A stretch of 64,000 bases of DNA from Ciconia boyciana. Its lineage: Eukaryota. Positions 20,882 to 60,543 of the stretch are shown here, piece by piece (positions within the stretch are counted from its first letter, which is position 1; every line of letters starts with the position of its first letter). The translations under genes and the position numbers were made by a program. The DNA is taken from assembly GCF_034638445.1 (NCBI RefSeq), contig NC_132969.1, forward strand, positions 255,423-319,422, given 5' to 3'. The notes beneath the pieces are model-generated. The model did not search any database and was not told where the DNA came from. It saw nothing but the letters and a program-made list of their open reading frames with translations.

Positions 20882-21065
20882 TCACTCGGGGATGTCGATC
20901 ACCAGCTCGTCGTCCCCGTCCAGGGGTCGTCGCCGCTCCCCTCCCCGCGTCGCTCAGCATCCGCCGGGGACGGTGCTGGGGACGGGGGGCCCTTGGGGGG
21001 AGGGGCGGGGGAGGGGCCCTCCCGGGCCACGCCCCGAGGGGAAGGGCAAAGGGGGTGGGGGGCAG
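20882..21065 (-). CDS. INO80E: INO80E terminal coding region; the reading frame is broken twice by apparent 1-bp gaps
   Basis: On the minus strand after acceptor ccctcccccag, three successive frames read ..PRRMLSDAG / GEGSGDD / [13 protein letters not shown]. Human is [27 protein letters not shown]. Stop TGA is the reverse complement of 20882-20884. Adding one G to the gggg run and one C to the cccc run restores a single frame. Confidence 0.55.
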
Positions 21066-21099
21066 CTGGGGGAGGGGGTGGGCGTGAGTGACCCACGGT

Positions 21100-21550
21100 G
21101 CCCCCAAGCGCCCCCACAGCCCCCCAAGTGCCTCCTAAGTGCCCCACTGTGACCCCTAAGTGCCCCATTCTGACCCCCAAGTGCCCTCCAGGCCCCGAGT
21201 GTGTGTCCCCCCCAAGTACCCCATTGGGACCCCAAGTCCCCCGTGACCCCCAAGTGCCCCTCCCAGCCCCCAAGTGCCCCATTCTGACCCCCAAGTCCCC
21301 TCCCAGCCCCCAAGTGCCCTACTGTGACCCCAAATTCCCCCTGTGCCCCCTGGGACCCCAAGTGCCCCCCAGCCCCTCAAGGCTCCCCCAGCCCCCAAGT
21401 GCCCCCTGGGACCCCAAGTCCCCCCCAAGTCCCCTCCCAGCCTCCCAAGTGCCCCACTGTGCCCCCAAATTCCCCCTGTGCCCCCTGGGACCCCAAGTCC
21501 CCCCGCAGTGCCCCATTCTGACCCCCAGCCCCCAAGTGCCCCCCCCCCTC
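21100..21550. repeat. Minisatellite ccccaagtgcccc(attctga/ctgtga) array (INO80E intron)
   Basis: Read directly. Confidence 0.8.
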
Positions 21551-21558
21551 CCCTCTAC

Positions 21559-21810
21559 CTGCAGGCGCCGGGAGCCCTTGGGGCGGCGGGCGGGGCCGGG
21601 GCGGGGCCGCTCGGGCGGGGCGGCCCCTCGGGGGCCAAATACTCGGTGGGGAAGGGGCTGTAGGGGGAGGCCATCTGGGGGGGAGGGGTCGGTGAGGGCC
21701 CGCCCCTCCCCCATGGGGCGAGGGCGGCGTGGGGGAGGGGCGACTCACCATGTAGGGGGCAGGCGGCGGGGGAAGCCGGGCGGGGGAGGGGAGGGCGGGG
21801 GCTGCGCTTC
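21559..21810 (-). CDS. INO80E: INO80E coding exon (Pro/Ser-rich middle region)
   Basis: Minus strand: acceptor ccccccacag, then (R)[71 protein letters not shown]... matching human KRKRSPPLGG...SSRYPPFPSDYLALQLPEPSPL. Donor GTAGAG. Confidence 0.7.
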
Positions 21811-21895
21811 CTGTGGGGGGGGAGGGAGAAAGAGTGAAGGCCGGCGGCCATCTTGAGGGCTGGCGGCGGCCATCTTAGCCCCCTCCCCCCTTTAC

Positions 21896-21971
21896 CTCTT
21901 GGGTGGGGGAGGGTCCGCCCCCTTCGCCCCCTCCCCCTCGCTGTTGTCGGACGAGGCGGTGGCTTCCGAAT
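21896..21971 (-). CDS. INO80E: INO80E coding exon
   Basis: Minus strand: acceptor tcccccag, then (D)[24 protein letters not shown](R) matching human [27 protein letters not shown]. Donor GTAAAG. Confidence 0.8.
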
Positions 21972-22053
21972 CTGGGGGAGGGGGATGTGTGTGTGGGGGA
22001 GGGGTGTCCGTCCCCCTCCCCTCCATCTCTCCGTCCCCTCCCCGCCCCGGTAC

Positions 22054-22106
22054 CTGACGAATCCTCGTCCACGTTCTCGTACTGCAGCAACCGGTCCAGG
22101 AGGAAG
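22054..22106 (-). CDS. INO80E: INO80E coding exon
   Basis: Minus strand: acceptor cccccag, then (S)[17 protein letters not shown], identical to human. Donor GTACCG. Confidence 0.88.
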
Positions 22107-57469: not shown

Positions 57470-59560
57470 AGGACACGGTCACCCCCCCCCTCCCCCCGAC
57501 CGCGGTGGGACCCCCAAAACTGACCCCGGGCCCCCCCACGGTCAACGTGGGACCCCAAATCCCCCTCTGGGACCCCAAACCCAGCCTGGGACCCCAAAAC
57601 TGACCCCGGCCCCCCGCGGTCAACGCGGGACCCCAAATCCCCCTCTGGGACCCCAAATCCTCCTCTGGGACCCCAAAACTGACCCCGGGCCCCACGGTCA
57701 CACCTGGGACCCCAAACCCCCTCTGGGACCCCAAACCCAGCCTGGGAGACCCCAACCCCCCGGAACCCCCAAAATCCCCTCTGGGACCCCTAAAAGTGCC
57801 CCTGGCCCCCACGGTCACACCTGGGACCCCAAAACCCATCTGGGACCCTCAAATCCCCTCTGGGACCCCCAAAACCCAGCCTGGGAGACCCCAACCTCTC
57901 CCCGGGATGCCCCAAACCCCTCTGGGACCCCAAAAATCCCCCTCTGGGACCCCAAACCCACCCTGGGACCCCCAAACTCTGCTCTCTGTCCCCATATGCC
58001 ACCCTGGGACCCCCAAAACTGCTCCTGGCCCCTCATAGTCACCCCTGGGATCCCCCAAATCCCCTCTGGAACCCCCAAAACCCAGCCTGGGACCCCAAAA
58101 CTGACCCCGGGCCCCCATGGTCACCCCGGGATCCCCAAATCCCCCTCTGGGAGCCCAAAACCCATCTGGGACCCCCAAACCCACCCTGGGACCCCAAAAT
58201 CCCCCTCTGGGACCCCAAACCCACCCTGGGACCCCCAAAATCCCCCTCTGGGACCCCCAAACCCACCCTGGGACCCCAAAATCCCCTCTGGGACCCCCAA
58301 ATCCTCTCTGGGACCCCAAACCCACCCTGGGACCCCCAAATCCCCTCTGGGACCCCAAACCCACCCTGGGACCCCCAAATCCTCTCTGGGACCGCCAAAC
58401 CCCTCTGGGACCCCAAATCCCCTCTGGGACCCCCAAATCCTCTCTGGGACCCCAAAACTGCCCCTGGCCCCTCATAGTCACCCCGGGACCCCCAACCCCC
58501 TCTGGGACCCCTGGGACCCCCCAAAAGCGGGCCTCACCTGCAGCTCCAGGCCGAAGCCGGGGTCTGCGCGGATGCTGTAGGTGCAGTCCAGCCCCCGGCC
58601 CCCCGGGTCCCCCCCGGGAGCCTCCAGCCACCCCTCGGGGCCCCCCAGGGAGGCGTTGCAGGGGGCTGCGGGGGAGCGGGGTCACCCCGGGACCCCCCGA
58701 GACCTCCCGGTACAGCCCCGGGGGCCTGGGGAGCCCCAAATCCCCCGAGACCCCCAGTGACCCCCATAGACCCCTGTGACCCCATATCCCCCCAGTGACC
58801 CCCGGGGACCCCAAACCCCCGTAGCCCCCCACTGACCCCCATATCCCCCGGGGACCCCCATATCCCCCCTGGGACCCCCAAATCCCCCCATAGCCCCCCA
58901 CTGACCCCCATATCCCCCCGGGGACCCCTCTATCCCCCCCAGTGACCCCCAAATCCCCCCTGGGACCCCAAATCCCCCATAGCCTCCCCAGTGACCCCCA
59001 AATCCCCCGGGACCCCCAAACCCCCATATCCCCCCGGGAACCCCAAATCCCCCCATAGCCCCCCAGTGACCCCCATATCCCCCCGGGACCCCAAATCCCC
59101 TCCGGGGCCCCCAACCACCCCCATAGTCCCCCACTGACCCCCATATCCCCCGGGGACCCTCTATCCCCCAGTGACCCCCAAATCCCCCTGGGACCCCAAA
59201 TCCCCCATAGCCTCCCCAGTGACCCCAAATCCCCCCGGGACCCCAAACCCCCCATATCCCCCAGGAACCCCAAATCCCCCATAGCCCCCCAGTGACCCCC
59301 ATATCCCCCCGGGACCCCAAATCCCCTCCGGGGCCCCCAAATCCCCCCCATATCCTCCCCAGTGACCCCCATATCCCCCCGGGACCCCAAATCCCTCCGG
59401 GGCCCCCAACCCCCCCATAGCCCCCCAGTGACCCCCATATCCCCCCGGGACCCCAAATCCCCTCCGGGGCCCCCAACCCCCCATAGCCCCCCAGTGACCC
59501 CCATATCCCCCGGGACCCCAAACCCCCCATACGCCCCCGGGGACCCCCGAGCCCCCCTCC
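57470..59560. repeat. Minisatellites (tgggaccccaaacccccctc ~30 bp; ccccccgggaccccaaatccccatagcccccagtgacccccatatc ~60 bp), interrupted by the SEZ6L2 exon at 58538-58665
   Basis: Read directly. Confidence 0.8.
58538..58665 (-). CDS. SEZ6L2: SEZ6L2 CUB domain 1 (N-terminal half) exon, 128 nt
   Basis: Minus strand: acceptor ctcccccgcag, then (x)PCNASLGGPEGWLEAPGGDPGGRGLDCTYSIRADPGFGLELQ matching human [45 protein letters not shown]. Donor GTGAGG. Confidence 0.85.
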
Positions 59561-59585
59561 CAGTCCCTCCCAGTTCCCCCCTCAC

Positions 59586-59746
59586 CGCTGCTGCTGGTGC
59601 TGTTGGTCTCCTCCTCCCCCCCCTCAAGGATTTGGGGGCCGGGGGGTCGCCGAGACCCCACCCCCCCAGCGGGGGTGGGGGAGGAGGGGGTGGGGGGCCC
59701 TGTCAGGGAGCCCCGGCCTCCGCGGGGGGCTCGACCGTGGGGGTCC
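59586..59746 (-). CDS. SEZ6L2: SEZ6L2 coding exon (Pro/Thr-rich N-terminal region)
   Basis: Minus strand: acceptor tctccccctcccccaacag, then ..SLTGPPTPSSPTPAGGVGSRRPPGPQILEGGEEETNSTSSS matching human ..[21 protein letters not shown]. Donor G|GTGAGG. Confidence 0.75.
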
Positions 59747-59853
59747 CTGTTGGGGGAGGGGGAGAGCAGTGAGACACCCCCCCCCCACAATGCAAGGACC
59801 CCCCCTCTTTTTGCAAGCCCCGCCTCTTTTTGCAAGCCCCGCCCCTTACTCAC

Positions 59854-59928
59854 CGGGGGGTCCGGGGGGTCGGGGGACCCTCGGGGGGCAGCGGGGGGTG
59901 GGGGTGTCGGTCTCCGTCACGGGGAGCC
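59854..59928 (-). CDS. SEZ6L2: SEZ6L2 coding exon 2
   Basis: Minus strand: acceptor cccctcccccag, then (G)LPVTETDTPTPRCPPRVPRPPGPP(G). Human follows its signal peptide with GLPLKEEEILPEPGSETPT. Donor G|GTGAGT is the reverse complement of 59847-59853. Confidence 0.65.
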
Positions 59929-59949
59929 CTGGGGGAGGGGAGGGTTGGA

Positions 59950-60470
59950 GGGGGAGACCCCAGGGCCCCCCGAGAAACGGGGGTCTGCCCAGGGACCCCC
60001 AGGCCCCCAAACCCCGAGCCCCCCAGGAGCCCCCAAACCCCCAGGGACCCCCTGAGCCCCCAAGGACCCCCCAGGGACCCTCAGGACCCCCCAGTCCCCC
60101 AAAGGGACCCTGAGGACCCCCGAGCCCCCCAGGACCCCCAACCCCCCAGGGACCCCCAGGACCCCCGAACCCCCCAGGACCCCCAGGGACCCCCAAGGGA
60201 CCCTCAGGACCCCTCCGAGCCCCCAGGACCCCCGAGAACCCCCCGGGGACCCCCAAGGGACCTGCAGGAGCCCCAGGACCCCCAAACCCTCTCAGGGACC
60301 CCCAGGACCCCCGAGCCCCGGGACCCCCCCAGGGACCCTCAGGACCCCCCGAGCCCCGGGACCCCCAGGGACCCTCAGGACCCCCGAGCCCCCAAGAGCC
60401 CCCAGGGACCCCAAGCCCCCTCAGGACCCCCCGAGCCCCCAGGACCCCCCCACCCCCTGGCCCCCACATT
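59950..60470. repeat. Short-unit array cccccagggaccc / cccaggaccccc in SEZ6L2 intron 1
   Basis: Read directly. On the plus strand it yields a spurious Pro/Gln/Asp-rich ORF (59830..60597). Confidence 0.8.
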
Positions 60471-60472
60471 AC

Positions 60473-60543
60473 CTGGGCAGGGGCTGCGGCCAGGAGGAGG
60501 AGGAGGAGGGGGAGGAAGAGGCGGGGGGGTGCAGGGCCCCCAT
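60473..60543 (-). CDS. SEZ6L2: SEZ6L2 first coding exon (signal peptide); the hydrophobic core is visible only after adding 1 bp in a C7 run
   Basis: Minus-strand ATG is the reverse complement of 60541-60543. As written it reads MGALHPPASSSPSSSSWPQPLP. One extra C gives MGALHPPPxLFLPLLLLLAAAPAQ, which resembles human [27 protein letters not shown]. Donor AG|GTAATG. Confidence 0.7.

Follow-up and report, generated by a model that had tools for sequence, protein, structure and literature searches.

Reading frames break repeatedly inside the exons of five protein-coding genes, PRODH2, INO80E, HIRIP3, PAGR1 and SEZ6L2, in a 64,000-nucleotide stretch of the genome of the oriental stork, Ciconia boyciana (positions 255,423 to 319,422 of contig NC_132969.1 in RefSeq assembly GCF_034638445.1; hereafter the window, numbered from its first base). 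Across these genes we counted about 18 one-base shortfalls and 1 one-base excess. We consider it very probable (about 0.9) that the breaks are one-base errors in G/C runs of a nanopore-based assembly and not real gene damage, a reading that rests on comparative and statistical evidence together with the published assembly method. The region is syntenic with human 16p11.2. The window has a G+C content of 63% with unusually dense runs of G and of C, and the GC content of exons in the region reaches up to 80%.

Frame breaks in five genes

Frame switches were first viewed by three-frame translation of the exons, and orthologous proteins were placed on the window with a frameshift-aware dynamic-programming aligner. 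These proteins came from crane, ostrich and alligator for SEZ6L2; from owl, quail, duck and alligator for INO80E; from turtle for HIRIP3; from kiwi and cuckoo for PAGR1; and from king vulture for PRODH2. Orthologous DNA of Grus japonensis (L001), Athene noctua (L003) and Struthio camelus (L004) was aligned base by base, exon by exon. Human proteins served only as leads for exon finding, and all conclusions were drawn from retrieved sequences. An initial annotation of the window had reported frame jumps inside single exons at or next to G/C runs, and both the three-frame views and the frameshift-aware alignments bear this out. Outside SEZ6L2, the breaks were located as follows:

6336..6338, plus strand: PRODH2 (hydroxyproline dehydrogenase) exon 1; G3 run, one base short; the as-written ATG frame stops after 19 codons.
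20885..21030, minus strand: INO80E last exon; three one-base shortfalls, in runs 20966-20969, 20943-20946 and 20923-20926 (plus-strand coordinates).
21560..21810, minus strand: two internal INO80E exons; three -1 events, in the coding-strand C5 runs 21797-21801 and 21768-21772 and within 21610-21629.
26054..26193, plus strand: HIRIP3 exon; G5 run 26163-26167, one base short, with an LRG/ELQALG frame switch.
27992..28170, minus strand: PAGR1 last exon; coding-strand C8 run 28032-28039, one base short.

For PRODH2 exon 1, alignment with the protein of Sarcoramphus papa (P0242) placed a frameshift at MGQERGGVA!GRPTAKGTPLNF. As written, the exon reads MGQERGGVAVGAPRRKEPR followed by a stop; the addition of one G yields MGQERGGVAVGRPTAKGTPLNFGEG..., which is nearly identical to the sequence of other birds.

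Alignment of the last INO80E exon with Athene noctua DNA revealed three 1-nt gaps in the stork within 50 nt, all with conserved flanks. This exon ends as written in ...PSTVPGGC and a stop, and three added bases gave an end matching the Athene protein P0128. In the two internal exons, the segments RKRSP, PPSPPPPGFP and PAPYM, and likewise SPYSPFPTEYLAPE and ERPRPGPARRPKGSRRLQ, lie in successive -1 frames, and the Athene DNA keeps one frame per exon. The net length difference and the order of the frames are clear for these internal events, the exact base being less sharply placed than in the last exon. The initial annotation had counted two events in the last exon, where three were found; with the three in the two upstream exons, the total for the gene comes to six.

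A separate discrepancy concerns the annotated owl INO80E protein P0128 (L003 13114-13255, Athene noctua GCA_965140245.1), which reads ...SRRIFGPRGPAPAPPRPRPPPQRLPQ, although that DNA encodes the conserved PSPPYSPFPAEYLAPEAPPRPRPGPARRPKGSRRLQ intact in another frame. The frame error lies in the gene model, in GC-rich sequence free of stops, and the sequence itself is not at fault; for the exon misread in P0128 we used the owl DNA and the proteins of other species instead.

HIRIP3 was checked in its three 3' exons; its conserved N-terminal exon was not located. The acidic middle of the gene (23786-24976) is itself a tandem repeat, with units of about 150-480 bp encoding Glu-rich blocks between lysine-rich stretches. 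In the exon with the frame switch, the stork DNA reads CTGCG-GGGGAGCTGCAG and the owl DNA CTGCGGGGGGAGCTGCAG, that is, G5 versus G6 with identical flanks, which places the previously reported break near 26160 in the G5 run at 26163-26167.

The as-written PAGR1 open reading frame passes the true stop and continues to 27877. A two-base repair had been suggested for the break in the last exon; the break itself held, in the C8 run, but one added C was enough to restore the conserved C-terminal end (compare Apteryx ...APKRPPGLFLRQRKY). Intron 1 of this gene contains an AT-rich block (28380-30111) with a GC content of about 0.23, as against 63% for the window, composed of simple AT-rich sequence and then a 113-bp minisatellite of 10 copies with 90% identity (28994-30111).

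In SEZ6L2, the following exons were compared:

60473..60543, minus strand: exon 1 (start codon, signal peptide); one base missing, most simply in C7 run 60523-60529.
57261..57449, minus strand: CUB exon; -1 event in 57363-57372 (coding strand GGG/CCCCC).
55058..55236, minus strand: sushi exon; -1 event, most simply in G5 run 55168-55172.
53279..53445, minus strand: CUB exon; two bases missing, one in C4 run 53394-53397 and one in one of three G5 runs in 53373-53391.
49957..50151, minus strand: sushi exon (exon 7); G5 run 50137-50141 one base short, C4 run 50130-50133 probably one base long.
48986..49103, minus strand: CUB exon (exon 8); two -1 events, in G6 at 49089-49094 and within 49041-49055.
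46708..46927, minus strand: CUB exon; -1 event within 46743-46783, between ...RFQAQGG and NAGLPFLIRYE.
33244..43293, minus strand: six 3' exons; internal control, frames intact as written.

Exon 1 of the stork gene is 4 nt shorter than that of ostrich. With one C added it reads MGALHPPRLFLPLLLLLLAAAPAQ, then gt, and the ostrich DNA encodes MGAPAAPPRLFLLLLLLLLLAAPP in frame with the ATG. For 57261-57449, stork CTCCC-CCTGG stands against ostrich CGCCCGCCTGG, and the crane comparison agrees. The exon at 55058-55236 shows a net difference of -10 nt from ostrich, equivalent to -1, with the exact base not placed. At 53279-53445 the stork is 2 nt shorter than the crane, and two added bases give ETPEGAGGRGANRSC versus crane ETPEGGGRGLANLSC; a +1 insertion was considered for this exon and rejected, given the 2-nt deficit relative to crane and the far better match to crane of the two-base correction. 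In exon 8, stork GCGGGGGG-AGCTG aligns with ostrich GCGGGGGGGAGCTG (G6 versus G7), and a second -1 event follows about 45 nt later. The exon at 46708-46927 is 1 nt shorter than in crane, its site lying in a diverged stretch and not placed to the base. No frameshift was found inside the six 3' exons by comparison with crane, ostrich and alligator.

In exon 7, unlike the others, the as-written frame is the same at both ends of the exon, a missing G being followed about 4-9 nt later by an extra base, relative to both crane and ostrich. The run is G5 in stork and G6 in crane, and the TGC codon beside it is conserved in crane and ostrich DNA. As written, Gly-Cys reads Ala-Ala and the first sushi cysteine is lost; replacing G5-CTG-C4 with G6-CTG-C3 turns AGAAPSPW into AGGCPSPW (crane AGGCPPPR) and restores Cys1. 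An earlier correction, with an extra G and one base taken off GCCC, brought no gain in Pfam and was replaced by G6 plus C3.

Most of the SEZ6L2 breaks in the initial annotation were found as described, namely those at 46708-46927, 55058-55236, 57261-57449 and in the signal-peptide exon 60473-60543. At 53279-53445 the break stood but its one-base repair did not, the shift being +1/-2 so that two bases are needed. At 49957-50151 the sequence does show a -1/+1 pair with a lost cysteine, but the exon is in frame overall and so has no frame break as had been claimed. All the genes listed there proved to be affected, but the list was incomplete, having overlooked the two -1 events of SEZ6L2 48986-49103 and the break in PRODH2 exon 1.

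Some features of the crane locus and of the stork introns should be recorded alongside. In Grus japonensis (GCA_045298695.1), the ATG frame of SEZ6L2 exon 1 (L001 5130-5270) reads MGGPHPHPPLPPSSSSSWLPAPAQ, with the leucine run in another frame, and the annotated crane protein P0017 has a different 5' exon and is without most of the sushi exon matching window 55058-55236; the crane assembly or annotation may have the same kind of problem. Nearly every intron of stork SEZ6L2 (33244-60543) consists of tandem arrays with units of 9-250 bp in tens to hundreds of copies and with a strong strand-specific G/C skew (for example, 37661-41734, 43335-45702, 50802-52155 and 56080-57244), which spread about 2.3 kb of coding sequence across 27 kb.

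Several frameshift calls of the aligner were dropped. Those at 37505, 33495, 33418, 6474 and 23196-23315 (INO80E 5' region) fall outside exons and are intron or untranslated-region artefacts, and a call at 27819, in a poorly conserved part of the last HIRIP3 exon, is contradicted by a single open as-written frame.

Run context, coding constraint and domain content

Orthologous DNA resolved eight events to the nucleotide, and all of them (8/8) sit in or at the edge of a G/C run of at least four bases. Such runs hold only 10-26% of the bases in the exons concerned, and even at a generous 0.35 per event the chance of eight run-associated events out of eight is about 2e-4. The association with runs therefore exceeds chance. 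Events that were not pinned to a nucleotide are compatible with runs of 3-8. The density of events, given here per kb of coding sequence, climbs with GC and run density:

EIF3C: 0
six 3' exons of SEZ6L2: 0
PRODH2: 0.8
PAGR1: 1.6
HIRIP3 (three 3' exons): 2.8
SEZ6L2 exons 1-9 (80% GC): 6.3
INO80E: 10

At the break sites, the run is longer or the frame intact in the assemblies of owl, crane and ostrich and in proteins from many species; where a site could be resolved, these assemblies had one more base between identical flanks. The corrected stork peptides match bird orthologues. None of the corrected frames contains a stop codon. After the breaks, mismatches to the orthologue at corrected-frame codon positions 1, 2 and 3 numbered 31, 35 and 54, so that 66 of 549 sites were mismatched at positions 1 and 2 versus 54 of 273 at position 3; this third-position bias resembles that of the upstream sequence and of the control exons. 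Pfam offered a reference-free test, in which as-written and corrected translations of SEZ6L2 exons were compared:

55058-55236, sushi exon: no match as written; Sushi 27.8 bits, 1-56/56, corrected.
53279-53445 plus next exon, CUB pair: no match as written; CUB 22.9 bits (cut-off 21.4) corrected.
48986-49103 plus 46708-46927, CUB pair: CUB 17.7 bits as written; 35.4 bits corrected.
49957-50151, sushi exon: Sushi 29.7 bits, 5-56, as written; 32.0 bits, 1-56/56, corrected.

These results bear directly on whether the frameshifts could be real, the stork having recently pseudogenised PRODH2, INO80E, HIRIP3, PAGR1 and SEZ6L2 perhaps in the course of gene decay on an unstable GC-rich microchromosome. 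The lesions do stand in the deposited sequence, and RefSeq models carry them; no stork SEZ6L2, INO80E, HIRIP3 or PRODH2 protein came from the database; and homopolymers are also hotspots of true replication slippage. In a 2026 paper (PMC12954441), avian dot chromosomes are argued to be unstable and to have genuinely lost genes; the genes considered here are not named in it. However, the third-position bias and a high amino-acid identity persist past each break, the Pfam domains are intact after correction, and the DNA of owl, crane and ostrich has no break in the corresponding frames. Both PAGR1 and INO80E, the latter a subunit of a chromatin remodeller, show broad conservation that extends to other birds. 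The bias toward one-base deletions is 18:1, with all events in G/C runs. Some 19 indels that leave no stop in any corrected frame, nearly all of one direction and in one context, thus point to a systematic measurement error and not to neutral decay, and we regard recent pseudogenisation of these genes as highly improbable. We give equally little credence to a version in which some or all of the frameshifts are real and reflect slippage-driven decay of homopolymer-dense 16p11.2-block genes in the stork or in this individual; a very recent real loss would escape the codon-position test, and a very recent real lesion may still be present at a single site.

The breaks were also compared with two biological categories. 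The relaxed constraint that marks a unitary pseudogene was not seen, there being no stops and a mismatch distribution of 31/35/54. In programmed ribosomal frameshifting, a gene has a single shift site that its orthologues conserve, together with a slippery sequence and a stimulator downstream; a stork gene here has as many as ten sites, and at these the DNA of owl, crane and ostrich keeps to one frame.

It is also conceivable, if very unlikely, that consensus errors account for most of the events and that a small number reflect heterozygous alleles or true differences. The likeliest of these would be the -1/+1 pair in 49957-50151 and the events in the poorly conserved 46743-46783 and in INO80E 21610-21629. 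The exon 7 pair leaves its exon in frame and its correction gains only 2.3 bits in Pfam, and several sites fall where the length of the sequence genuinely differs between species. Yet through the change in exon 7 the sushi domain loses its invariant first cysteine, though TGC is conserved in DNA, and the other ambiguous sites share the -1 sign and the G/C-run context with the sharply resolved ones.

Probable origin of the frame breaks in the source assembly

Translated as written, the first and last PAGR1 exons of the window match the RefSeq protein XP_072705251.1 (PAGR1 isoform X2, Ciconia boyciana) with 100% identity, frameshifted tail included. This identifies the window as belonging to the oriental stork assembly annotated by RefSeq. 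Both XP_072705251.1 and XP_072705250.1 (PAGR1 X2 and X1; P0121 and P0241) end in an out-of-frame tail of about 50 residues (...FFFFFGGG), which (window 27877-28038) reads through the true stop toward the convergent 3' end of HIRIP3. In the protein collection searched, queries with the SEZ6L2, INO80E, HIRIP3 and PRODH2 sequences of the window matched orthologues of other birds and no stork protein, an absence that would fit gene models having failed or been left out. The database searches yielded few SEZ6L2, INO80E or HIRIP3 proteins from birds.

The RefSeq proteins also speak to the idea that functional copies lie elsewhere in the genome and that the window represents a duplicate in decay, or a copy that was collapsed or wrongly assembled. 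The region is full of tandem repeats, which invite mis-assembly. However, the protein collection holds a single stork PAGR1 cluster, both isoforms of which have the frameshifted tail, and the gene order and exon structure match other bird loci. A decayed copy should also hold substitutions and stops, and none were seen. We consider this explanation extremely improbable.

A literature search found only one genome-assembly paper for Ciconia boyciana, and it is nanopore-based (Yang et al. 2024, PMC11494145). Oxford Nanopore Technologies (ONT) PromethION reads were assembled with NextDenovo and polished by NextPolish with the ONT long reads, and short whole-genome sequencing reads were remapped afterwards for base correction (PMC11494145). 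The errors left in assemblies made from long reads only are mainly errors of homopolymer length, and short reads cannot repair them in places where these reads do not map (PMC8812927, PMC9262707). In bird genes, it is in the GC-rich exons that false indels and frameshifts are concentrated (PMC9516821).

We propose that errors of this origin would account for the frame breaks, the consensus having been derived, as we infer, from ONT reads. Nanopore reads tend to under-call homopolymer length. Correction with short reads would probably have failed locally, the reads being scarce or poorly mapped at 70-80% GC. Many G/C runs of 3-8 bases would thus remain one base short, and one run a base long, each such error shifting the frame of an otherwise intact, functional gene. 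The initial annotation had put forward a systematic deletion bias in GC homopolymers, from sequencing or assembly, and every test that we ran supported it. Its view that real lesions in so many genes are unlikely likewise agrees with the lack of stops in corrected frames, the third-position bias and the restored domains.

Several observations weigh against an origin in assembly errors. The local error rate, which in INO80E reaches up to about 1% of coding bases, is high for a polished assembly. Errors are also patchy, with 0 events in the 3' exons of SEZ6L2 (24 runs of at least 4) and 1 event in PRODH2 (32 runs); uneven short-read correction would explain this patchiness. Nor are the assemblies used for comparison free of errors, since in crane the first exon of SEZ6L2 is itself out of frame as written. 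No stork protein from a read-based assembly came up in the database searches, and exact look-ups of the two RefSeq PAGR1 isoforms gave no contig on record. Finally, the identity of the RefSeq window with the published ONT assembly (PMC11494145) is one that we infer.

Window content and comparison with known assembly errors

In order, the window contains the 3' end of EIF3C; PRODH2; the last zinc-finger exons of MAZ; INO80E (minus strand); HIRIP3 (plus strand); PAGR1 (minus strand); and SEZ6L2 (minus strand, 33.2-60.5 kb). Tandem repeats occupy most introns of the window. Between 11442 and 16642 lie very long arrays with periods of 18 bp and 36 bp that are open in several frames on both strands, for example about 160 copies of GGTGGTCATGGTGACGCT at 13752-16636. 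The splice acceptor of the MAZ exon encoding RPDHLNSHVRQVHSTERPFKCE follows about 25 nt after the end of these arrays, a position that makes them a probable minisatellite of a MAZ intron and not coding sequence.

The biological significance of the frame breaks is small, the genes being almost certainly intact. What we describe is almost certainly a known kind of assembly artefact, and it amounts to a quality warning for the reference and not to a biological discovery. Its consequences for users of this reference are nonetheless concrete. The two RefSeq stork PAGR1 proteins carry an artefactual C-terminal tail of about 50 residues instead of the conserved end, and analyses of gene loss, loss-of-function load or selection based on this reference would score these sites as lesions. 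More generally, genes of GC-rich avian microchromosomes can be assembled and yet drop from annotation through base-level errors. Gene models here need frame correction, and the region needs to be re-polished with accurate long reads.

The closest known counterparts are the homopolymer-length errors of nanopore assemblies (PMC8812927; PMC9262707), including those that fragment genes (PMC12007338). As proposed for the window, one-base homopolymer errors survive long-read polishing, remain in places to which no short reads can be assigned, and create frameshifts and genes that look like pseudogenes. Those papers are mainly bacterial, whereas the stork case concerns a vertebrate microchromosome with dense G/C runs and six to ten errors in one gene. 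A 2022 study of false indels (PMC9516821) likewise found false indels in GC-rich coding exons of birds, with frameshifts and distorted or missing gene models, and its diagnosis came from mapping accurate reads of the same individual. It compared older Sanger and Illumina assemblies with those of the Vertebrate Genomes Project, whereas in the stork the faulty assembly would itself be a long-read one and the errors are nearly all deletions. The 'missing genes' of birds in GC-rich regions (PMC5470226; PMC6321700; PMC9021737) offer a third parallel, in that genes syntenic with 16p11.2 are hard to sequence and are absent or defective in many bird annotations. Here, by contrast, the genes are assembled and recognisable, and the failure lies in base accuracy and not in absent sequence.

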